A stretch of 44,794 bases of DNA from Minisyncoccota bacterium. Its GTDB lineage: Bacteria; Patescibacteriota; Minisyncoccia; Phycocordibacterales; UBA9973. The stretch's first letter is position 1. Every line of letters begins with the position of its first letter. The DNA lies in the NCBI GenBank assembly GCA_018062505.1, contig JAGOSA010000003.1, positions 1 through 44,794 of the forward strand. Reading direction: 5' to 3'. Of the stretch, positions 2,566 to 44,794 are shown in pieces. The notes beneath the pieces were generated by a model. It ran no database searches and was not told where the DNA came from. It worked only from the letters and a program-made list of their open reading frames with translations. Made by a program: the position numbers and the translations under genes.

Positions 2566-5337
2566 ATGACTATTGAATTTGTTAAGAAGCGCAGCGGGGA
2601 CGTCATGCCGTTTGACATCCAACGCATACAGAAGGCCGTTGCCTCAGCCTATACAGCCTGTGGTATCGAAGCTACCGACGACCTTTTCTCTGAAATTGCC
2701 CTTGCAGTTTCAGCTGAGCTCGAATCGACGATGCCGGACAACACTCCGCACGTCGAACAAATTCAAAACCTTGTAGAAAAACTGATTGCTGACAAAGGCC
2801 ACTTTGAAGTCTCTCGCGCGTACATCTTGTATCGCGCTGAACGAAGCCGCATGCGCGCCGAAAAGGAAAAAGAGCGCATGGAAAAGATCTCAAAGAACGA
2901 GATTACGATCGAAAAGCGCAATGGCGAGCTTTCAACACTCAATGTTGAAGAAATCCGAAAGGCCGTTGCTTTCCATTCAAAAGGATATGAAGCATTTATC
3001 GACGTTGAAGACATTGTTACGCTTACAAAGCGCAACCTCTACGACGGTATTTCAACACCTGAGATCAATAAGGCTGTCATCATGGCGCTCAAGTCTCGCA
3101 TCGAGCGCGATCACGCTTACTCTCTTGTTGCTGCGCGATTTTTGATCAATGAAAACTACCACGAAGTTCTTGGCGTCAGTGAAATGAGCCCAGAATTCGA
3201 AAGTAAGTACCGTTCAGAGTTCGAAGTGCAGATCAAGCGCGGCATCGAAGACAAGCGCCTTGATACTCGCATGGCTAACTTTGATTTCAAGCAGCTTTCG
3301 GCTGCCCTCACACCAGAAGACGACAAACTTTTTACATTCCTCGGTGCGCAGACTCTCTATGATCGCTACTTCCTCCGCGACCATGAACAGAAATTCCTCG
3401 AAACTCCTCAGTACTTCTGGATGCGTATTGCCATGGGTCTCGCTTTGCTTGAAAAAGATCCAACAGCTGTCGCTATCGAATTTTACGCAGCGATGTCGAA
3501 GATTCTCTATATCCCTTCGACTCCAACGCTTCTTCACTCTGGAACAACACATCCTCAGATGTCTTCTTGCTACCTTACGACTGTCGAAGACGACCTTCAC
3601 CACATCTTTAAGTGTATTGGCGACAATGCGCAGCTTGCAAAGTGGTCAGGCGGTATTGCAAACGACTGGACAAACATCCGCGCGACAAATGCTCAGATCA
3701 AATCAATCAACACAGGCAGCCAGGGCGTTATTCCTTTCCTCAAGATTGTTGATGCAACAACTGCGTCAATCAATCGTTCAGGCAAGCGCCGCGGTGCTAC
3801 TGTCGTTTACCTCGAAACATGGCACGCTGACATCGAAGAATTCCTAGATCTCCGCAAAAACACTGGTGACGATCGCCGCCGCACACATGACATCAACACT
3901 GCTCACTGGATTCCAGACCTTTTCATGAAGCGTGTCGAGCAAGATGAATATTGGACACTCTTCTCTCCAGAAGAAGTTCCTGAGCTTCACCACATCTACG
4001 GCAAGGCTTTTGAGGAAAAGTACACACACTATGAAAAGATGGCTGACGAAGGCAAAATTGCCATGTTCAAGCGCATTCCAGCGGCTCAGATGTGGAGAAA
4101 GATGATTACGATGCTTTTCGAAACTGGCCACCCTTGGATTACTTTCAAGGATCCATCAAACATTCGCTCTCCGCAGGATCACGTTGGCGTCATTCACTCT
4201 TCAAACCTCTGCACAGAAATCATGCTCAATACTTCTGCTGAAGAAACAGCTGTTTGTAACCTCGGCTCAGTCAACTTGCCAATGCACATCGTAGACGGCA
4301 AGCTCGACAAAGAAAAAATGGCTCACACTATTGCTGTCGGTATGCGCATGCTTGATGCTGTTATTGATATCAACTTCTACCCAACACCAGAAGGCCAAGT
4401 TTCAAACTTCCGCCATCGCCCAGTTGGCCTCGATATCATCGGTTTCCAAGATGTTCTCTATAAAGTCGGCCTTAGCTTTGATACACAGGAAGCTGTCGAA
4501 TACTCTGACGAGCTCATGGAATTCGTTTCGTACCATGCAATCTTGAACTCTTCTATTCTTGCCAAGGAAAAGGGCGCTTACCCAAGCTATAAGGGTTCGA
4601 AGTGGGATCGCAATTTGTTCCCAATCGACACACTTGATCTTCTTGAAGCAGAACGCGGCGTACCGATCGAAATCGATCGTACTGTGCGCATGGATTGGGC
4701 TCCTGTTCGCGAACATGTCAAAAAGTACGGCATGCGCAATTCGAACACTATGGCTATTGCTCCGACAGCAACTCGCTCCAACATCTCTGGCTGCTTGCCA
4801 TCGATCGAGCCGATCTACAAGAACCTCTACGTTAAGTCTAACTTCTCTGGCGAATTCACAATCGTGAACCACCACTTGATCGAAGAGCTCCGACCTCTCG
4901 GCCTTTGGAACAATTCTGTCATCCAGAAGCTCAAGCACTTTGACGGTTCGCTCAAGAACATCCACGAAATCCCTGAGCACATCCGCAACAAGTACAAGGA
5001 AGTCTTCGAAATCGATGCGCTCTGGATCATCAAGCACGCTGCAAAGCGCGGCAAGTGGATTGACCAGTCTCAGTCGATCAACATCTTTACAAGCTCACAG
5101 TCAGGCAAGCTCATCGGCGACGTCTACATGGCGGCTTGGAACATGGGCCTCAAGACGACATACTACCTCCGAACGCTTGGCGCGACATCTGTCGAGAAGT
5201 CGACTATGGACATCAACAAGGACTACAGCATTCCTGAAGCTTCTCCTGAGCTGATCATTCCATCGACAGCAGACATGTCTGCCTCAAAGCCTGAAGTATT
5301 TGTCTTTGAAGGGGAGATTTGCGAGTCTTGTACATAG
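2566..5337 (+). CDS. nrdA: Ribonucleotide-diphosphate reductase alpha subunit (class I, with N-terminal ATP-cone)
   Basis: ATP-cone (VKKRSGDVMPFDIQRIQKAV). Catalytic core motifs SSCYL, NLCTEI, AIAPTAT. C-terminal Cys pair (CESCT). Start set at ATG 2566 (MTIEFVKKRSG) rather than GTG 2530. Confidence 0.95.
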   Translation: MTIEFVKKRSGDVMPFDIQRIQKAVASAYTACGIEATDDLFSEIALAVSAELESTMPDNTPHVEQIQNLVEKLIADKGHFEVSRAYILYRAERSRMRAEKEKERMEKISKNEITIEKRNGELSTLNVEEIRKAVAFHSKGYEAFIDVEDIVTLTKRNLYDGISTPEINKAVIMALKSRIERDHAYSLVAARFLINENYHEVLGVSEMSPEFESKYRSEFEVQIKRGIEDKRLDTRMANFDFKQLSAALTPEDDKLFTFLGAQTLYDRYFLRDHEQKFLETPQYFWMRIAMGLALLEKDPTAVAIEFYAAMSKILYIPSTPTLLHSGTTHPQMSSCYLTTVEDDLHHIFKCIGDNAQLAKWSGGIANDWTNIRATNAQIKSINTGSQGVIPFLKIVDATTASINRSGKRRGATVVYLETWHADIEEFLDLRKNTGDDRRRTHDINTAHWIPDLFMKRVEQDEYWTLFSPEEVPELHHIYGKAFEEKYTHYEKMADEGKIAMFKRIPAAQMWRKMITMLFETGHPWITFKDPSNIRSPQDHVGVIHSSNLCTEIMLNTSAEETAVCNLGSVNLPMHIVDGKLDKEKMAHTIAVGMRMLDAVIDINFYPTPEGQVSNFRHRPVGLDIIGFQDVLYKVGLSFDTQEAVEYSDELMEFVSYHAILNSSILAKEKGAYPSYKGSKWDRNLFPIDTLDLLEAERGVPIEIDRTVRMDWAPVREHVKKYGMRNSNTMAIAPTATRSNISGCLPSIEPIYKNLYVKSNFSGEFTIVNHHLIEELRPLGLWNNSVIQKLKHFDGSLKNIHEIPEHIRNKYKEVFEIDALWIIKHAAKRGKWIDQSQSINIFTSSQSGKLIGDVYMAAWNMGLKTTYYLRTLGATSVEKSTMDINKDYSIPEASPELIIPSTADMSASKPEVFVFEGEICESCT

Positions 5338-6454: not shown

Positions 6455-6502
6455 TGCCGATTGCAATCCCCATATATAGATAGTCTTAAGCGGTTATTCG
6501 AC

Positions 6503-6508
6503 TATAAT
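6503..6508 (+). promoter_or_regulatory. -10 box (TATAAT) 9 nt upstream of ATG 6518
   Basis: acTATAATtgattcattATG. No Shine-Dalgarno motif. Part of a recurrent pattern in this window. Confidence 0.4.
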
Positions 6509-6517
6509 TGATTCATT

Positions 6518-7240
6518 ATGAAACATAAATCACTTCTTATCGTCGCTGCTGTGCTTGGTCTTGTCGCCATTGTTTTTGTTTTTGCATCTGGTTCATCTGC
6601 ACTTAATAATGCTCAAGTGCAGACAGGCCCAGACACTGCTGCAGTGGCTCAGGCAACAATTCCTGATTCAATAAATGTTAATACAAAAACTCCACAAGCA
6701 GCTGCTCCAGACAGCAAGCTTGTTAAAAGAGCTAGTGCTGCCTGCGGTTCAGTGCTGGTTGCATTTACACAGCTCCCAGTAACAGCTTCAATGGTTGATA
6801 ATTACCCAGTTGGAGCACCATTCCCAGCAGATCAGACTCCGATGCGCATTAAAATTACAAACAATAGCACATGTACAGAGACTGTTTCCTATATTGATTT
6901 CCCAGTTGTCTCACGAACTGGTGGTGTTAACTTCGGTGGTGGATTGCTAACAGATGCAAATTCAGGAGCAATTTACAGTCAATTGTTCTCCAGAGCGTTC
7001 TGGGATATTGATTCAGTCTATGCACCTATGGACACAGTAGGTGCACCGATTGTCCTTGCTCCAAATGCGACTGTCGAGATTGATGTTAAACTTCAAAACA
7101 TTCATCAGGTTAATCTTCAAAATACAGGATTTTACGATTACTTTGCGGTTGGCCTTGGAACGATATATACAACAGATGGATCAAGCCAAATGTTTCGCAA
7201 TGATTTCAATTATTTCAGCAAGATCATGGAGGTTCAATAG
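6518..7240 (+). CDS. Secreted/anchored hypothetical protein
   Basis: N-terminal hydrophobic helix (SLLIVAAVLGLVAIVFVFA). No recognised domain. Followed by a strong terminator. Confidence 0.6.
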   Translation: MKHKSLLIVAAVLGLVAIVFVFASGSSALNNAQVQTGPDTAAVAQATIPDSINVNTKTPQAAAPDSKLVKRASAACGSVLVAFTQLPVTASMVDNYPVGAPFPADQTPMRIKITNNSTCTETVSYIDFPVVSRTGGVNFGGGLLTDANSGAIYSQLFSRAFWDIDSVYAPMDTVGAPIVLAPNATVEIDVKLQNIHQVNLQNTGFYDYFAVGLGTIYTTDGSSQMFRNDFNYFSKIMEVQ

Positions 7241-11834: not shown

Positions 11835-11839
11835 CATTT

Positions 11840-12239
11840 TATGGCTTGTGCCTATAAGCCGAATTCTGTATCGCGCGATCTTTCGATCGTGTGACGACAA
11901 TCATTTATCTAGGCCTACGATTGCTCGCAGGCTCAAGCGACTCTCATGTTGTGCAAACTTTCGCTTACACAACTAGCACGGTCTTGCACAGAAGTAAGGG
12001 TTTAGCCGTTTCAATTCTGCCTTACGGCAGACATGTTCCTTTGCCATTTGCATGGCCGAGGAATCCTAGCCTTTCGGCATTTCGCTTGCGCGATTTTCGG
12101 CGTCTCTGCTCGCACCTCATGGGTTGCCCCAGACGGGAATTACCCGCTACTTGCTCCTTTGCCATTGCTGGCAAAGGCTGTGTTCGGACTTTCCTCACTC
12201 AAAGCCGAAGCCTCGAGCGCGATTGTCCAGCACAAGCCG
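11840..12239 (-). ncRNA. rnpB: RNase P RNA (bacterial type A)
   Basis: The reverse complement contains GAGGAAAGUCCGAACAC (CR-I), GCGGGUAAUUCCCGU, GCUUGAGCC....GGCCUAGAUAAAUGAUUGUCG and ACAGAAUUCGGCUUAUAG (CR-V). These are collinear with the E. coli M1 RNA 3' region as I recall it. P1 pairs GGCUUGUGC (5') with GCACAAGCC (3'). It has its own promoter and terminator. Confidence 0.92.
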
Positions 12240-14946: not shown

Positions 14947-14972
14947 TTTGGCTCGAAAAAAGCCGCCGAATG

Positions 14973-14981
14973 TGGTAAAAT
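14973..14981 (+). promoter_or_regulatory. Extended -10 (TGgTAAAAT) 9 nt upstream of secA ATG
   Basis: aatgTGgTAAAATgacgcatctATG. Confidence 0.45.
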
Positions 14982-14990
14982 GACGCATCT

Positions 14991-17486
14991 ATGGCTATAA
15001 CCGATACAATTAAAGGGCTTTTTACTTCGTCGCCGTTGCCGAAGTACCAATCTACCCTCAAAAAGATCAATGACCTCGAAGAGTCGTTTAAGGCTCTTTC
15101 TGATGCTGATTTTCCTGCTAAAACGATTGAGTTCAAGAAAATGCTCGCTGCTGAAGGATCTGCTAAGAAAACACTAGACGATATTTTGCCTGAAGCATTC
15201 GCTCTTGTTCGCGAAGCATCTCGACGCATGCTTGGTCAGCGTCACTATGATGTGCAATTGCTTGGATCAATGGTTCTTCACTCAGGAAACATTGCTGAAA
15301 TGAGAACTGGTGAAGGTAAGACGCTCGTTGCAACTCTTTCAACATATCTCAATGCACTCGAAGGCAAAGGCGTTCACGTTGTTACGGTCAACGACTACCT
15401 CGCGCGCCGCGACGCTGCTTGGATGGGACAGATTCACAATTTCCTCGGCCTCACTGTTGGTATCATCAACTCGCAAAACATTTCTTATCTATATGATCCT
15501 GCTCACAAAGATGCAGAAGACGACAAAGAACGCGATACACTCGGTTCATTTAAAGTTGAGTACGAATTTTTGAAACCTTGTTCTCGCAAAGAAGCTTATG
15601 CTGCAGACGTCACATACGGCACAAACAATGAATACGGCTTCGACTACTTGCGAGATAACCTTGCGCAGAAGCGAGAAGATCTCGTTCAGCGCGGTCACCA
15701 TTATGCAGTCGTTGACGAAATAGACTCGATCTTGATCGACGAATCACGCACGCCGCTCATCATTGCCGGCAAAGCAGGGGACAGCGAAAATCTTTACGGC
15801 ACATTTGCTAAAATAGCTCGCCAGCTCGCGCGCGACACAGATTACACTGTAGATGAAAAGCATCGCGCTGTTCAGCTTACTGATGCGGGTATTACTCGCG
15901 CAGAAAGTTTGCTCGGCATTCAGAACATTTATACAGAAAAGGGAATCAAGTACGTTCACCATCTCGAAACGGCAGTTCGCGCCGAAGCGCTCTTCAGCAA
16001 AGATAAAGAGTATGTCGTCAAAGACAATGCAATTATTATTGTTGATACATTTACTGGACGCTTGCAGCCAGGCCGCCGCTGGAATGAAGGCTTACACCAA
16101 GCTATTGAAGCTAAAGAAGGCGTGAAGATCGAGCAAGAAACTCGAGCTGTCGCTTCTATTACATACCAAAACTACTTCCGCTTCTACAAAAAGCTTTCCG
16201 GCATGACTGGTACTGCTAAAACGTCTGAAGAAGAATTCCTCAAGGTTTACGGACTTTCTGTTATTCAAGTTCCAACACATCGCGTACCTCAGCGCATCGA
16301 TCACACTGATCTCATTTTCCAAACAGAGAAAGGCAAGATTCAGGCAATGGTCCGCAAAATCAAAGAGCTCAATCAAAAGGGACAACCAGTGCTCATCGGT
16401 ACAGCATCGATCGAAAAAAACGAACTCCTCCACGAATATCTCACGGCTTCTGGTGTTCCGCACGAAGTCTTGAATGCCAAGAACCACGAACGCGAAGGCG
16501 AAATCATTGCGCAAGCTGGACGAAAAGCTGCTGTCACTATTGCCACAAACATGGCGGGCCGCGGCGTCGACATTATTCTCGGTGGTGTTCCTTATGTTGA
16601 ATCAGCTCACACTGAAGTAAAATCGCTTGGCGGTCTGTACGTTATAGGTACTGAGCGACACGAAGCGCGCCGCATCGACAACCAGCTCCGCGGACGATCT
16701 GGCCGACAAGGCGATCCAGGCGAAACGCAATTCTACCTTTCATTTGAAGATGACCTCATGCGCGTCTTTGCGACTGAATCCCTCAAGAACATGATGGGCC
16801 GCTTCGGTATTCCCGAAGACGAGCCAGTCGTCAATCGCTTCGTTTCTCGCGCTATCGAAAATGCTCAGGCAAAAATCGAAGGCATTAACTTTGATTCGAG
16901 AAAGCATACGCTCGACTACGACATGGTTCTCAACACGCAGCGTGAATCTATTTACTCTCGCCGACGCAAAATGCTAGTTGCTTCTGATGAAGAAGTCATG
17001 GCATACGGCAAAGAAACATTTGGCAATGACGAAAATGTCTGGAAAACGATCGAAGAAAAGAGAGAGAAAGTCGGCGACGTCGCTTTTGCTGATGTCTTCC
17101 GACGCATCGTTCTCTATGTGACAGATTCTCTTTGGACTGACCACATCGAAACGATGGACTACATGCGTTCGTCTGTTAACTTGCGCGCCTACGGCCAGCG
17201 CGAGCCTATTGTCGAATACAAGAAAGAAGGCTTGCGAATGTTTAAGGAAATGGAGGCAACTTTCTACAACAATGTTGTGACGCTTATCGGTACAATTGAA
17301 AAATCAGGGGAGAATAGTAATGGCGGCCAATCTGCCGGCAATAACAATACAGTTGAAGTTGAGGGCGGCGTGCCAGCAAATTCTCTTTCTGAAGGCGACA
17401 ATCCATACAAAAATCAAAAAATCGGCAGAAACGACGCTTGTCCATGCGGTAGCGGGAAAAAGTATAAGCAGTGTCATGGAAAGTAG
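14991..17486 (+). CDS. secA: Preprotein translocase ATPase SecA
   Basis: Walker A MRTGEGKT. DEAD-like VDEIDSILIDE. GRQGDPGE motif. C-terminal zinc finger CPCGSGKKYKQCHG. Confidence 0.96.
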   Translation: MAITDTIKGLFTSSPLPKYQSTLKKINDLEESFKALSDADFPAKTIEFKKMLAAEGSAKKTLDDILPEAFALVREASRRMLGQRHYDVQLLGSMVLHSGNIAEMRTGEGKTLVATLSTYLNALEGKGVHVVTVNDYLARRDAAWMGQIHNFLGLTVGIINSQNISYLYDPAHKDAEDDKERDTLGSFKVEYEFLKPCSRKEAYAADVTYGTNNEYGFDYLRDNLAQKREDLVQRGHHYAVVDEIDSILIDESRTPLIIAGKAGDSENLYGTFAKIARQLARDTDYTVDEKHRAVQLTDAGITRAESLLGIQNIYTEKGIKYVHHLETAVRAEALFSKDKEYVVKDNAIIIVDTFTGRLQPGRRWNEGLHQAIEAKEGVKIEQETRAVASITYQNYFRFYKKLSGMTGTAKTSEEEFLKVYGLSVIQVPTHRVPQRIDHTDLIFQTEKGKIQAMVRKIKELNQKGQPVLIGTASIEKNELLHEYLTASGVPHEVLNAKNHEREGEIIAQAGRKAAVTIATNMAGRGVDIILGGVPYVESAHTEVKSLGGLYVIGTERHEARRIDNQLRGRSGRQGDPGETQFYLSFEDDLMRVFATESLKNMMGRFGIPEDEPVVNRFVSRAIENAQAKIEGINFDSRKHTLDYDMVLNTQRESIYSRRRKMLVASDEEVMAYGKETFGNDENVWKTIEEKREKVGDVAFADVFRRIVLYVTDSLWTDHIETMDYMRSSVNLRAYGQREPIVEYKKEGLRMFKEMEATFYNNVVTLIGTIEKSGENSNGGQSAGNNNTVEVEGGVPANSLSEGDNPYKNQKIGRNDACPCGSGKKYKQCHGK

Positions 17487-23215: not shown

Positions 23216-23309
23216 TTTTTCGGTATTAGGGTATGCACAGGATATCCCCACGGTTGACTTTCCGGTTATGTTATAATACCAAGCATAAATTGTCGGGTTG
23301 TTTATTAAA

Positions 23310-23315
23310 TATAAT
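23310..23315 (+). promoter_or_regulatory. -10 box within the shared motif TATAATGGCTGCATA, 8 nt upstream of ATG 23324
   Basis: aaaTATAATggctgcatATG. The same 15-mer recurs at 25465. Confidence 0.45.
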
Positions 23316-23323
23316 GGCTGCAT

Positions 23324-24382
23324 ATGATATATAAAAAGTTTTTACCGCTAGTAACTGTGCTCTCGCTCGTTTTAGGCATGATTGCTCCTGTTTTCCCTCA
23401 GCGAGCAATGGCTGCATCTCTCACTGCGCTTTCTGACACACAGTCAACAATCAAAGCGGCAACAGCTTCAAACCACGATATTTCTTTCACGACACCAACT
23501 GGTATTACATCCGGTCAAACTGTTGTACTTACTTGGAACAACAGCACTTCAGTCAATGCTTCACTCGATTTTACTGATATCGACGTTTTGGATGATGGTG
23601 TTAACGTTACTCTAGCTGCTTCGCCATCAGGTGCGACGTGGGGTGCAGTTCGAACTTCTGGTACAGTTATCACTCTTACTAACGGTAACGTTGCTGTCGC
23701 AGGTGGCAGCGTCGTCCGCATCAAGATTGGTACGAATGCGACAAACCAATCTACAGGTGTACGACAGATAACAAATGGTTCTGCCGGAACAACAACACTC
23801 ACAATTGCTGGCGGTACTTTTGCTGACAGTGGAACTATTTCAACACCAATCATTGCAGATGACGTAGTCAACGTTACTGCCACAGTCAACCAGACAATTA
23901 GCTTTTCTGTTTCAGATACAACAATCGGTTTTGGTACGCTTGCAACAGCAAACGCAAGGTATGCAACAGGCGATACTCTCGGTACGACATCTGATACAGC
24001 AGCGCACACTGTTGCGGTTGCAACAAACGCTGCAAATGGCTACACAGTCAATCTTCAGGGAGCAACACTAACTTCAGGAGCTAATACAATTGATGCGATA
24101 GGAGCAACAAGCGCTGCTTCATCAGCAGGAAACGAACAATTCGGTGTGTATGCGACAAAATCAGGTGGTGTTAACGGCACAATTACCACACGTTATAACG
24201 ACAATGCGACACCTGGGTTTGCATACAATGCGACTGGTTCTACTGCAGACACACTTGCAACAGGATCTAGTGCAACCAACACAGAAACATACTCAATTCA
24301 CTACATAGCAAACATCTCAGCTATTACCGAAGCTGGATCATATGCGACAAACATTACTTATGTCGGTACAGGTAACTTCTAG
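23324..24382 (+). CDS. Secreted protein: N-terminal beta-rich domain plus C-terminal WxL/SCPU-like module (candidate fibre subunit)
   Basis: Signal peptide (LVTVLSLVLGMIAPVFPQRAMA). C-terminal 164 aa (23888..24379) are ~55% identical by eye to 22727..23212 (ISFSVSDTTIGFGTL.., GYTV.LQG.TL.SG..TIDA.GAT, ..GSYATNITYVGTGNF). Confidence 0.8.
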   Translation: MIYKKFLPLVTVLSLVLGMIAPVFPQRAMAASLTALSDTQSTIKAATASNHDISFTTPTGITSGQTVVLTWNNSTSVNASLDFTDIDVLDDGVNVTLAASPSGATWGAVRTSGTVITLTNGNVAVAGGSVVRIKIGTNATNQSTGVRQITNGSAGTTTLTIAGGTFADSGTISTPIIADDVVNVTATVNQTISFSVSDTTIGFGTLATANARYATGDTLGTTSDTAAHTVAVATNAANGYTVNLQGATLTSGANTIDAIGATSAASSAGNEQFGVYATKSGGVNGTITTRYNDNATPGFAYNATGSTADTLATGSSATNTETYSIHYIANISAITEAGSYATNITYVGTGNF

Positions 24383-24383
24383 T

Positions 24384-25469
24384 ATGAAACAATTATTCAA
24401 AAACCCAGTTGTTTGGTTTTTGGCTTTTGTTCTCTTGTTTACTCCGCTGATTAGCGCACATGCGCTGACAGTTTCTCCAGCACGACTTGAGATAGACGGT
24501 AATCCTGGATCTCAGCTCAAAATAGACATGGTTCTCATGAATGATAAAGACGAGAATCAAGTTTTTTATTCTTCGTATGCAAATTTCGAAGCTCAAGGTG
24601 AATCTGGTACGCCTAACTTTGTTGATCCAAAAGAAGGTCTAGGTACATGGATGAAAGTCCCTGAATCTGTCACTCTGTCTCCATTTGAAACAAAAACTGT
24701 TCCAGTTGTTATTAGTATTCCAAACACTGCCGATGCGGGCGGACATTTTGCCTCTGTATTTTGGAGCACTGTTCCATCTCAGGGTTCACAGCCGGGTCAG
24801 GTTGCTATTGGTGCAAAGCTTGGCGTGCTTGTTCTCCTTCGAGTTAATGGGGACATAACTGAGAATGGATCTATTGTCGATTTCACAACTAAGGATGGTA
24901 TTAAAAAGTTCTCAGCATTACCAGTTACATTTACATATCGATTCAATAATGCCGGAGATGACCGCGTAAAGCCGGTCGGCACTTTAACGATTAAAAATAT
25001 TTTGGGAATGAAGCGTACTGTTATTGATGGCAACCCAAGCCAAGGCAACGTACTGCCAAAAAGCACTAGAAAATTTGAGCTAGCATGGAATAAGAAAAAC
25101 GCAGTAAATGAGGTTTATGTTGCTCCAGTCGGTTTTTGGGATAATGTTTCATACCAGTGGAAGCATTTCGCATTTGGCAGATATACTGCGAATCTTTCTC
25201 TTGTATACACAAGTAAGAATATCGCTGATTCTGCAACTACAACTTTCTATGTATTTCCATGGCAGCTTCTCATAGTCATAATTATCGCTGCGATTATTGC
25301 GTATCTCTTGCTTAAGAGAATTATGCGATCGTACAACAGAATGCTGATTGCTCAGGTGCGCGAGAAAATTGAAGAAGAAGTTGAAGAGAGACTAGAAGCC
25401 AAACAAGAACAAGAAGAAGAGGAAAAAGTAATTCGCAAGCCTAAATCTCACCACAGACCTAGGGTATAA
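24384..25469 (+). CDS. DUF916/DUF3324-like (PapD-like Ig fold) protein with C-terminal TM anchor and charged tail
   Basis: Start at ATG 24384, 1 nt after the upstream stop. Signal peptide. LTVSPARLEIDGNPG...MVLMND. NTADAGGHFASVFW. Second Ig-like domain. TM helix LLIVIIIAAIIAYLLL, then a KR- and E-rich tail. The architecture matches Firmicute CscA-type proteins as I recall them. Confidence 0.75.
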   Translation: MKQLFKNPVVWFLAFVLLFTPLISAHALTVSPARLEIDGNPGSQLKIDMVLMNDKDENQVFYSSYANFEAQGESGTPNFVDPKEGLGTWMKVPESVTLSPFETKTVPVVISIPNTADAGGHFASVFWSTVPSQGSQPGQVAIGAKLGVLVLLRVNGDITENGSIVDFTTKDGIKKFSALPVTFTYRFNNAGDDRVKPVGTLTIKNILGMKRTVIDGNPSQGNVLPKSTRKFELAWNKKNAVNEVYVAPVGFWDNVSYQWKHFAFGRYTANLSLVYTSKNIADSATTTFYVFPWQLLIVIIIAAIIAYLLLKRIMRSYNRMLIAQVREKIEEEVEERLEAKQEQEEEEKVIRKPKSHHRPRV

Positions 25470-25470
25470 T
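25465..25470 (+). promoter_or_regulatory. -10 box within the shared motif TATAATGGCTGCATA, 9 nt upstream of ATG 25480
   Basis: gggTATAATggctgcataATG. It overlaps the stop codon of the upstream gene. Confidence 0.45.
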
Positions 25471-25479
25471 GGCTGCATA

Positions 25480-26370
25480 ATGAGCAATACGCCTGTCCAT
25501 CTTGTATTTATAAAAATTGTACTTATTGCCACTCTGTTTTGTTCAGGCAGTTTCGTTCTTGCTGATGAAGTAGTCAATATATCTGCAACTGTTCCGGGAA
25601 TTATTCCGGGTGGCCCAGGCGGAGGTGGTGGTGGATTCGGAGGACTCACAGCTCCGACTGCTGTTTCTTTTTCTGGTCGCGCATATCCGCTTTCGCGCGT
25701 CACTATTTTGCGCGATAACGTTATTGCAATTACAACAATTGCTGGACCAGATGCACGCTTTAATGTAACGCTTGACGCGCTCAGTCAGGGAAACTACTCG
25801 TTCTCAGTTTATTCTGAAGACGCTGGCGGAAGAAAATCAGATTTATTTTCATTCCCGCTATATATCACAGAAGGCGCAACAACGACTATTTCAGGAATAT
25901 TTATTTCTCCAACAGTCGATGTTGATAAAATGACGGTTAAGCAAGGGGATAACATTACTATTTTTGGATCGAGCGCCCCAAATGCTTCAATTACTATCTC
26001 AGTCCATTCGCCAGTTGAGCATTTTGTTCAAGCTAGCACAGACCAGACAGGAGCTTATGTATATACATTCGACACTTCAATTCTTGAGCTAGGAAGCCAT
26101 CTTGCAAAGTCTAAAGCAGTGCTGGGTAGTGCTGCGACTGAGTTCGGCAAGGCAATTTCATTTTCCGTCGGTGATAAAACAATACCAAAAGATAAAGGCT
26201 GCAATGCCAAGGGGGACCTAGACGCCAATTGCCGCGTAAACCTGATAGATTTTTCAATAATGGCATATTGGTATAAGCGACCTAATCCGCCGGCAAACGT
26301 AGACCTCAACGGAGACAATACAATTACTATTGTTGACTTCTCGATTTTGGCATATGGCTGGACAGGTTAA
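25480..26370 (+). CDS. Secreted protein with Gly-run, two Ig-like repeats and C-terminal dockerin domain
   Basis: Signal peptide. GGPGGGGGGFGG. Two ~85-aa beta-sandwich-like repeats. The C-terminus carries duplicated Ca-binding dockerin segments, DLDANCRVNLIDFSIMAYWY and DLNGDNTITIVDFSILAYGW. Confidence 0.8.
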   Translation: MSNTPVHLVFIKIVLIATLFCSGSFVLADEVVNISATVPGIIPGGPGGGGGGFGGLTAPTAVSFSGRAYPLSRVTILRDNVIAITTIAGPDARFNVTLDALSQGNYSFSVYSEDAGGRKSDLFSFPLYITEGATTTISGIFISPTVDVDKMTVKQGDNITIFGSSAPNASITISVHSPVEHFVQASTDQTGAYVYTFDTSILELGSHLAKSKAVLGSAATEFGKAISFSVGDKTIPKDKGCNAKGDLDANCRVNLIDFSIMAYWYKRPNPPANVDLNGDNTITIVDFSILAYGWTG

Positions 26371-43935: not shown

Positions 43936-44096
43936 CTTTTGGTATCGTTTTGGGCAGAACTTTGATTTTTCGGCCTTTTTTTGATAGGATAACCCCGTCG
44001 GCCAATTTCGCTTTCGGGCGAGTGCTGGTCGCCAAAACGAAGAATATTCGGGAGTAGCTCAGCGGTAGAGCGACCGCCTGTGGGGATTTCCACCTT

Positions 44097-44105
44097 TGGT
44101 ATAAT
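44097..44105 (+). promoter_or_regulatory. Extended -10 (TGgTATAAT) inside the intron, 6 nt upstream of the HNH ATG
   Basis: ttTGgTATAATttacttATG. Confidence 0.4.
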
Positions 44106-44111
44106 TTACTT

Positions 44112-44420
44112 ATGCCAGATAACAGGAAATATGCCGATAGACGAGAAGCACTCATCAAAGCTGTTGCAAAACGACGCAGGAAGATAAAAGATCTTGCAGT
44201 TGAATACAAAGGTGGCAAATGCCAAATTTGTGGATACAAAAAATGTGTGGGTGCCTTAGAGCTTCACCATGTTAATCCAAAAGATAAACATTTCGGTGTA
44301 GGCGATAAAGGTTACACTCGTGCATGGAGCGTTGTGCAAAAGGAACTTGATAAGTGCGTACTGCTTTGTGCAAATTGTCACAGAGAAGTTGAGTCTGGCA
44401 TTACGCAGCTTTCTATCTAA
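44112..44420 (+). CDS. HNH homing endonuclease (102 aa)
   Basis: CQICGY....LELHHVNP......LLCANCHREVE, i.e. the HNH zinc-finger/nuclease signature. Located within the group I intron. Confidence 0.85.
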   Translation: MPDNRKYADRREALIKAVAKRRRKIKDLAVEYKGGKCQICGYKKCVGALELHHVNPKDKHFGVGDKGYTRAWSVVQKELDKCVLLCANCHREVESGITQLSI

Positions 44421-44709
44421 AGATAGATCGAAAATGAGGTGAATTCGGGGAAGCCCTAACTTGAACATTTGTTTACAGTGGGTAATCCCGAGCCAAGCTT
44501 CAATAGATATTTTAAATTTATTGTTGAAGGTGTAGAGACTATCTCGCAAGAGAGTAGTGTTCTGAAAAGTAAGATTTTCAGAATCCGAAGCGCCTCACTC
44601 CTACGTTTTGAGCAATCAAAATATGGAGATGATATAGTCCGTACCACTAGTAATAGTGGAGAAAACGTAAGCGGTTGGTCGTAGGTTCGATCCCTACCTC
44701 CCGAGCATC

Positions 44710-44741
44710 AAAAAATCACCTTATTTCCAAGGTGATTTTTT
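44710..44741 (+). terminator. Rho-independent terminator after the tRNA
   Basis: aaaaAATCACCTTatttccAAGGTGATTttttg. Confidence 0.8.
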
Positions 44742-44794
44742 GTTTCCACATAAGCAAAGCATTTGGTCATTGTTCCGGAGTACAATGAACACAT

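Follow-up and report, generated by a model that had tools for sequence, protein, structure and literature searches.

The sequence studied here occupies positions 44048-44705 (+ strand) of a stretch of bacterial DNA of about 44.8 kb, referred to below as the window, and is in all probability (about 90%) a tRNA-Asn(GUU) gene of the candidate phyla radiation (CPR, Patescibacteria) in which U35 and U36 are separated by a mobile group I intron that is self-splicing and has a gene for an HNH homing endonuclease in the loop of its first helix, P1. The element is real and conserved, and almost certainly functional as a mobile group I intron with an HNH homing-endonuclease gene.

The split tRNA-Asn gene and its splice sites

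Removal of nucleotides 44082-44667 in silico gives a canonical 73-nt tRNA-Asn(GUU) that is recognized by ARAGORN, as anticipated in a preliminary description of this DNA, according to which a complete cloverleaf is formed only if 586 nt are removed. In the raw 44.8-kb window no tRNA is found by ARAGORN, because the intron is too long. The junction was examined by combining 12 upstream and 15 downstream positions, each of the 180 combinations being spliced in silico and run through ARAGORN, and of these only 44081|44668 leaves U at position -1 and G at the intron end while giving a normal 73-nt tRNA whose anticodon loop has 7 nt. Alternative splice junctions and anticodons are rejected on this test and on the covarying P9.0 helix (see below), which fixes the 3' site. 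The elements of the locus are the following (open reading frame is abbreviated ORF):

44048..44081, + strand: tRNA-Asn 5' exon, tRNA positions 1-35, ending in C32 U33 G34 U35 (...CCUGU); assigned by in-silico splicing and ARAGORN, with homologous exons in 70 loci and compensatory changes in all stems
44078..44082, + strand: 5' strand of P1, exon CUGU plus intron G+1, with the 5' splice site after U44081; exon CUGU invariant in 71/71 introns
44082..44667, + strand: group I intron of 586 nt (Rfam RF00028, 63 bits), its limits set by the tRNA cloverleaf and by the covariation of P1 and P9.0
44097..44105, + strand: TGGTATAAT, extended -10 box of a putative promoter, 6 nt upstream of the ATG
44112..44420, + strand: predicted HNH homing-endonuclease gene (102 aa and stop; Pfam and PHROG matches) in the P1 loop, its last codons overlapping the guide and P2
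44404..44408, + strand: internal guide CGCAG (3' strand of P1); GCAG invariant in 71/71 introns, C44404 pairing with G44082
44668..44705, + strand: tRNA-Asn 3' exon, from U36 to discriminator G73, beginning UAAGCGG; CCA is not encoded
44710..44741, + strand: terminator-like hairpin and T-run directly 3' of the tRNA, read from the sequence and visible in weak Rfam alignments, unlisted by the consensus terminator scan

About 2,950 homologs of the HNH protein are found at E <= 1e-3, and the best 80 loci of a scan of one genome per species, almost all from Patescibacteria/CPR, were compared with the window, which yielded 71 introns with defined limits. In nearly all 80 loci the ATG of the HNH gene is preceded, 30-60 nt upstream, by the 5' half of a tRNA ending in CUGU, and brute-force splicing restores a tRNA-Asn(GUU) in 70 of them, all split at this one position by introns 498-647 nt long, so that the recurrence of this architecture is far beyond chance; six of the other ten loci are cut by contig ends and four have a different layout, described below. 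After splicing, every one of these tRNAs shows U1-A72, G73 as discriminator and CUGUUAA as loop, and compensatory changes are found in their acceptor, anticodon and T stems, indicating that the host gene is a genuine tRNA-Asn under selection. The 3' exon starts with UAA in all 71 introns. The interruption between positions 35 and 36, which had been proposed from the window alone, is therefore upheld both by the unique junction and by the 70 related loci.

The 5' splice site is defined by P1, in which the exon pairs with an internal guide in the 3'-terminal part of the ORF, some 320 nt downstream. The pairs are C44078-G44408, U44079-A44407, G44080-C44406 and U44081·G44405, the last being the U35·G wobble at the splice site. 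In the preliminary description no P1 with a U-G wobble could be identified, and this canonical pair became apparent by comparing loci; the guide suggested there, ACAGG at about 44119 (which would give a U-A pair), has to be rejected, as it lies within the 5' end of the ORF and is not conserved, the covarying guide being that at 44404-44408. Covariation is seen between intron position +1 and the base 5' of GCAG (G-C in 54, A-U in 11 and unpaired in 6 of the 71 introns), and three relatives whose introns lack an ORF have C-G (L043 and L078) or A-U (one) at this pair. Since P1 is formed by the exon and the CGCAG at 44404-44408, the ORF sits in the P1 loop and shares nucleotides at its 3' end with the guide and P2. 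Its last codons vary hardly at all in nucleotide sequence (...A-C-G-C-A-G-C-U-U...), and the change of C to U at the guide base that pairs with +1 turns a Thr codon (ACG) into a Leu codon (UUG), indicating that this conservation reflects a constraint on the RNA and not on the protein. In relatives with the HNH gene outside the intron, the C-terminus of the protein is no longer ...T-Q-L. A hairpin at the 5' terminus (GUGG.../...CCAC, 44080-44093, flagged as terminator-like) was also considered as P1 and discarded, being present in only a subset of relatives and showing no consistent covariation.

The ribozyme core and its subgroup

The Rfam model RF00028 (Intron_gpI) matches positions 44358-44660 with 63.0 bits (E = 9e-14, the full model, 1-253, being aligned). 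This is above the gathering score of 50 bits, and the search, which had been proposed in the preliminary description, thus confirms its assignment to group I; the motifs quoted there (CCGAGCCAAGC, GAAGGUGUAGAGACU, ACUAU/AUAGU and TGGTATAAT) are all present in the sequence. The helices of the core were assessed by aligning the ribozyme part (from the guide to the 3' exon) of 55 introns of the type defined below as A and mapping onto this alignment a helix model derived from the window, the variable loops that MAFFT could not align (P5 extension, P6a, P7.2, P8 extension and part of P9) being omitted or under-counted. Standard pairs are formed in 94.1% of the cells of the 47 core pairs tested, and 29 of these pairs have changed on both sides. 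None of 500 shuffles reaches the observed covariation score or percentage of pairing, and when the partners are slid by 1-3 columns just 33-46% of cells are paired. Covariation is found in P2, P3, P4, P5, P7.1, P8, P9.0 and P9, while P6 and P7 are invariant; the window intron has lost none of the 53 invariant ribozyme positions and none of the core helices, which are arranged as follows:

44412..44427, + strand: P2 hairpin of 6 bp, all 6 pairs with compensatory changes and 99% of cells paired; the loop is UAAA here and contains the stop codon TAA
44435..44441, + strand: 5' strand of P3 (partner 44591-44597; 7 bp, 3 with double changes, 97% paired)
44445..44491, + strand: P4-P5 domain (P4 44445-50/44486-91, P5 44453-56/44480-83; 10 pairs, 6 with compensatory changes)
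44459-66/44471-79, + strand: P5 extension, from a constrained fold
44492..44531, + strand: P6 (GCC/GGU, 44492-94/44529-31, invariant in 55/55) and P6a hairpin, the latter from the constrained fold
44537..44541, + strand: 5' strand of P7, GACUA, part of the guanosine-binding helix (partner 44635-44639; invariant in 55/55; aligned to P7 by Rfam)
44542-45/44550-53, + strand: P7.1-like hairpin of the insertion between P7 and P3', with a GCAA loop (3/4 pairs with double changes, 98% paired)
44559-68/44575-84, + strand: P7.2-like hairpin of the same insertion, 10 bp, from the constrained fold; the whole insert is listed as 44542..44586
44591..44597, + strand: 3' strand of P3, from the covariation test
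44598..44628, + strand: P8 (44598-601/44625-28; 4/4 pairs with compensatory changes) and its extension hairpin, from the constrained fold
44635..44639, + strand: 3' strand of P7, UAGUC within GAUAUAGUCC, invariant
44641..44666, + strand: P9.0 (GU 44641-42 / AC 44665-66) enclosing the P9 hairpin 44644-49/44654-59, with a GUAA loop
44667, + strand: omega-G at the intron end, directly after P9.0; this nucleotide is G in all 71 delimited introns

Both pairs of P9.0 show compensatory changes, are formed in 100% of cells and alternate between AU/GC and UA/CG types, which identifies G44667 as omega-G and fixes the 3' splice site. The loop of P9 (L9) is GNRA in 52 of the 55 introns.

The preliminary description had referred to this core as IC3, a claim that stands as regards core sequence (P3-P7) and not as regards architecture. 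The motifs AAUUCGGGGAA, CCCGAGCCAAGC, GAAGGUGUAGAGACUA and GAUAUAGUCC match the Azoarcus-type tRNA-Ile row (Aol6.Ile2.5Ug) in the alignment of Williams (2020; bioRxiv 10.1101/2020.01.27.920355), so that, on sequence likeness, 'IC3-like' is a fair label. The passage from P7 to P3' is not compact as in IC3, since the window intron has there 49 nt (44542-44590) with two hairpins (P7.1/P7.2-like) that are lacking in classical IC3 tRNA introns; that the absence of this insert is a formal defining feature of IC3 is our own judgement. A motif search for this arrangement (type A) matches 56 of the 71 introns, and about 11 of the rest are compact 'type B' introns without the insert (AGACUAGAUACCG...), which carry the same HNH gene and resemble the Tyr.4Ug row of Williams' alignment. 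Type-B and some ORF-less introns (L025, L037, L043, L078 and L218) do not reach the RF00028 threshold and were assigned by shared motifs, splice logic and likeness to the Tyr.4Ug row.

The HNH gene, its relatives and other features

The protein encoded in the P1 loop matches the Pfam family HNH (PF01844) with 22.3 bits (cut-off 21.4) and PHROG 2255 ('HNH endonuclease') with E = 8e-29, and has no match in NCBIfam. In the alignment of its homologs, C40, H52, H53, C86, N88, C89 and H90 are invariant and C37 is nearly so (CxxC...HH...CxxCH motif). The ORF is intact in 69 of the 71 introns, with a median pairwise dN/dS of 0.10, values from which it is judged to be under purifying selection. In the other two (L017 and L061) the ORF is broken, being read for 14 and 45 codons until a stop is reached, and the ribozyme part is seemingly intact, which may reflect early decay of the ORF or assembly errors.

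The 102-aa HNH ORF with its own -10 box, already pointed out in the preliminary description, is borne out by these matches and by the conservation of the box above chance: the stretch from the 5' splice site to the ATG contains an exact TATAAT in 50 of the 71 introns (3.9 expected from shuffles), and TGnTATAAT in 31 (0.2 expected). The spacing between box and ATG peaks at 6-8 nt, and a Shine-Dalgarno-like motif is present in 2 of the 71. Window genes starting at 6518, 14991, 23324 and 25480 also have a TATAAT/TAAAAT box (in 6498-6520, 14971-14993, 23304-23326 and 25460-25482, respectively), with 8-9 nt from its end to the ATG, and lack a Shine-Dalgarno motif, suggesting that leaderless or near-leaderless mRNAs are common in the host organism. 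Given the conserved and regularly spaced box, the lack of a Shine-Dalgarno motif and the like layout of these other genes, the HNH gene would be transcribed from an internal promoter as a leaderless mRNA.

The top 120 HNH homologs are 70-93% identical and come, where names are present, from 'Paceibacterota', 'Pacebacteria', 'Staskawiczbacteria' or 'bacterium' metagenome-assembled genomes (MAGs). A relative of the HNH gene is encoded in at least 518 genomes, in a scan of one genome per species, whereas the tRNA-Asn anticodon arm, identical in sequence, is uninterrupted in at least 120 related genomes of Paceibacteria/Nomurabacteria and no HNH homolog is present at these loci, a sporadic presence of the kind expected from a mobile intron. 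In L043 and L064 a free-standing HNH gene is located 31-34 nt upstream of the tRNA-Asn gene, and in L078 it lies 58 nt downstream; the tRNA-Asn genes of these three loci contain an ORF-less intron of 186-230 nt at the same site, and L268 is a further example of this layout. ORF-less introns at CUGU| make up about 50 of the 120 matches listed, mostly in tRNA-Asn and some unambiguously in tRNA-Asp, and are found in CPR and also in MAGs labelled as Acidobacteriota, Planctomycetes (Pirellulales, Planctomycetia), Elusimicrobia and Betaproteobacteria. Several of them score 63-107 bits with RF00028, and only 2 of 51, among the matches listed, have an HNH homolog nearby.

Phage records with HNH homologs number 364, with identities of up to 57-69%. 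All nine phage homologs inspected lie inside or adjoin tRNA genes or clusters, and a tRNA-Asn gene is the immediate neighbour of four of them (in Bastille, BCU4, Muenster and fHe-Yen9-04); the HNH gene of Bastille is followed, right after its stop codon, by a tRNA-Asn 3' fragment that starts at the anticodon stem-loop. From the empty sites, the free-standing HNH genes beside ORF-less introns and the tRNA-Asn neighbours in phages, that is, from genomic context, we infer that the DNA target of this HNH family is the anticodon region of tRNA-Asn.

Several further observations concern these relatives. The homolog of Bacillus phage Bastille (L205, 1162-1990) has 147 aa, with a Cys-rich N-terminal extension, and is located 107 nt downstream of an intact tRNA-Asn gene; the annotated second 'tRNA-Asn' of this phage (68 nt) gives no ARAGORN call and no Rfam tRNA match at the gathering score. 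In Sinorhizobium phage phiM7 (L332, 1120-1242) an annotated 'tRNA-Thr' of 123 nt, encoded opposite to the HNH homolog, shares sequence with the 3' end of the latter; such a length is unusual for a tRNA, and the gene may contain an interruption or be wrongly annotated. The same exon CUGU and guide GCAG are seen in ORF-less introns (in L212, L218, L239, L315 and others) of tRNA-Asp(GUC) and perhaps of tRNA-His and tRNA-Tyr, all of which have the loop start C32-U33-G34-U35 in common with tRNA-Asn, and the same CUGU/GCAG pairing is present in the Tyr.4Ug and Asp.4Ug rows of Williams' alignment. The 8-kb CPR locus L212 contains a second Rfam group I intron match (3305-3505, + strand, 61.6 bits), away from its tRNA-Asp candidate. 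In L081 (1586-11343), a contig from another sample that encodes an identical HNH protein and tRNA, the sequence diverges from window positions 44706-44794 right after ...CCCGAGCA, the 3' end of the tRNA, and continues with a 560-aa serine recombinase, a type I restriction-modification system and a Schlafen/AlbA-like gene, a cargo with the look of an island inserted at the 3' end of tRNA-Asn. Contig ends are also where many tRNA-Asn loci, both intron-bearing and intron-less, are found.

Besides the intron, the window contains a single curated RNA, a class-A bacterial RNase P RNA (11839-12238, - strand, 125 bits). Model positions ~138-190 (P12-P14 area) are unaligned or replaced in it, which suggests that this RNA is reduced.

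Proposed mechanism, alternatives and known systems

The structure described above suggests the following pathway. As the pre-tRNA folds, exon CUGU and G+1 would pair with the guide CGCAG (44404-44408) to form P1, with U35·G44405 marking the 5' splice site, and the P3-P9 core (44435-44666) would bind an exogenous guanosine for attack after U44081. The terminal G44667, positioned by the 2-bp P9.0, would then enter the G site, and exon ligation would give a normal 73-nt tRNA-Asn. The HNH gene in the 320-nt P1 loop would be expressed from its TGnTATAAT promoter as a leaderless mRNA, the host's usual layout, and its product would cut intron-less tRNA-Asn genes in or near the DNA of the anticodon stem-loop. 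Repair from an intron-bearing copy would spread the intron together with its ORF (homing), and carriers would be protected, as the intron splits the target site.

A number of observations weigh against such a functional homing intron. The loop of P2 (L2, 44418-44421) is UAAA in the window and GNRA in 53 of 55 relatives, a difference that could weaken a tertiary contact, and a single G-to-T change produces both this loop and a stop of the ORF two codons earlier than in relatives. On sequence inspection, P10 with the 3' exon is weak (UAA/UUA, with one base offset). The HNH protein, with 102 aa, is very small, has no recognisable DNA-binding domain and lacks a close solved structure, a profile search of PDB sequences giving marginal matches only (group II intron maturase HNH domain, E = 0.011; McrA, E = 0.24). 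Its AlphaFold2 model is too uncertain (pLDDT 52, pTM 0.33) for a fold comparison, so that its site specificity is deduced from genomic context only.

The altered L2 and the early stop, together with the broken ORFs of L017 and L061, are what would be seen if the element were a decaying relic that splices inefficiently, the split gene being a tRNA pseudogene and another tRNA-Asn of the genome doing the work. This is very unlikely, considering that CPR genomes are small and usually have one gene per tRNA, that the whole set of invariant ribozyme positions and core helices has been kept, and that the catalytic residues of the HNH protein are intact; besides, the identical protein, and hence the same stop and L2, is found on three further contigs from other samples, so that the variant persists and is no one-off error. 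On another reading, the protein would be a host or defence nuclease, or a splicing maturase residing in the intron, and not a homing endonuclease. Several homologs are named '5-methylcytosine-specific restriction endonuclease McrA' by JGI ('McrA-like' in some annotations), and the best, although weak, matches to solved structures are the maturase HNH domain and McrA mentioned above. Such a role is nevertheless highly improbable: in the best 80 loci the gene is almost always in, or less than 60 nt from, an intron-bearing tRNA-Asn, it is absent from the at least 120 intron-less loci, and its phage homologs are embedded in tRNA clusters, like the T4 homing endonuclease SegB (PMC2330249). The widespread and conserved ORF-less versions of the intron indicate, in addition, that the ribozyme needs no protein.

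With a different 3' splice site, the gene could encode another tRNA with G34-U35 (Tyr, His or Asp), and ARAGORN does accept alternative junctions with other anticodons; moreover, ORF-less introns at CUGU| occur in tRNA-Asp among the relatives, where alternative junctions also give tRNA-His and tRNA-Tyr calls. It is extremely improbable that this applies to the window, in which only 44667|44668 follows the terminal G set by the covarying P9.0, with a 3' exon starting in UAA as in all 71 introns. The 5-nt variable loop excludes tRNA-Tyr, and U1-A72 and G73, which we take to be features of bacterial tRNA-Asn identity, are present. A tRNA-Asn gene split by a homing group I intron is therefore preferred over these alternatives.

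Beyond the window, it can be tentatively proposed, with odds well under even, that a clade of small HNH endonucleases has specialised on the anticodon region of tRNA-Asn (and neighbouring tRNA) genes and moves among three locations: phage tRNA clusters, where it stands alone; the vicinity of an ORF-less CPR tRNA-Asn intron, again standing alone; and the P1 loop of that intron, with its last codons recruited as guide. If so, CPR genomes, in hundreds of species, would keep all the intermediates of a pathway, known until now chiefly from phages, by which an intron that gives protection is invaded by an endonuclease, and the intron would confer on an essential tRNA gene present in single copy immunity to self- or phage-encoded nucleases. 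As found in hundreds of species, ribozyme and endonuclease gene form a natural series of unlinked, adjacent and fused arrangements, the same nucleotides being constrained in the fused state as protein-coding sequence and as ribozyme guide. If the DNA of the tRNA-Asn anticodon is truly recognised, HNH proteins of ~104 aa would rank with the smallest candidates for a site-specific homing nuclease. In practical terms, standard tRNA finders miss the split gene, and CPR genomes will seem to be devoid of tRNA-Asn unless intron-aware tools are used.

The bacterial tRNA hosts of group I introns given in reviews are tRNA-Leu, fMet, Ile(CAU) and Arg(CCU), and the tRNA-fMet intron encodes an endonuclease with specificity for the anticodon region (PMC3984707); some CPR tRNAs are also known to contain group I introns (Lui et al. 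2021, PMC8172020). In the preprint of Williams (2020; bioRxiv 10.1101/2020.01.27.920355), 5,292 introns were mapped, the number of split bacterial tRNA types rose from 4 to 21, and the frequency is high (0.49 per genome) in metagenomic assemblies from unnamed phyla. The seed alignment of this work includes a row 'Pam37.Asn.4Ug' and also rows with a P7-P3' insertion, so the host and site, which the preliminary description did not find among known cases, had already been catalogued as 'Asn.4Ug'. The window intron has the features of this class, namely a tRNA-Asn host, insertion after anticodon-loop nucleotide 4, U-1 and omega-G, and its host, site and architecture are thus already on record. It shares with Pam37.Asn.4Ug the tRNA-Asn(GUU), the position after the fourth nucleotide of the anticodon loop (CUGU/UAA), similar core motifs and the P7-P3' insertion, and differs from this catalogued representative, which is short and ORF-less. 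No HNH gene, overlap of ORF and guide or CPR-wide distribution is described in the available parts of the preprint, and in open-access text no description was found of an HNH gene in a tRNA-Asn intron, of the guide overlap, of free-standing variants or of the link to HNH genes of phage tRNA clusters.

With the classical IC3 introns (in Azoarcus tRNA-Ile(CAU), cyanobacterial and plastid tRNA-Leu(UAA), tRNA-fMet and tRNA-Arg(CCU)), the window intron and its relatives have in common the anticodon-loop site, the U·G pair at the 5' splice site and GNRA loops in L2 and L9, and J3/4-P4, P4'-P6 and J6/7-P7 are nearly identical to those of the Azoarcus-type row (AAUUCGGnGAAA, CCGAGCCAAG, GAAGGUGUAGAGACUA, AUAGUCC). 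The window intron differs from them in its tRNA and position, in its 49-nt P7.1/P7.2-like insertion and in having a gene in a 320-nt P1 loop. Among endonucleases encoded by group I introns, I-Ssp6803I belongs to the PD-(D/E)XK family and not to HNH, while the phage enzymes I-HmuI, I-BasI, I-TevIII and I-PfoP3I are larger and have added DNA-binding modules. The tRNA-fMet intron of Synechocystis that carries I-Ssp6803I (Bonocora & Shub 2001, cited in PMC3984707) also differs from the window intron in tRNA and phylum, and the target of the window protein is a predicted one. The four phage systems resemble the window in that an HNH homing endonuclease gene is carried by a peripheral loop of their group I introns, but these introns interrupt phage protein-coding genes (PMC3428280, PMC3984707), and no phage intron in a tRNA gene had been seen by the time of a 2014 review (PMC3984707). 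The phage homologs of the window protein, like T4 SegB, sit in tRNA clusters (PMC2330249). Finally, the layout of L043, L064, L078 and L268, in which an HNH gene lies just outside a tRNA-Asn gene with an ORF-less intron, is the one known from collaborative homing, as in F-CphI at cyanophage psbA (PMC6083498) and mobE/I-TevIII (PMC2790892); these relatives belong to cellular CPR genomes rather than phages, and in the window the arrangement is 'fused', the intron itself containing the ORF.

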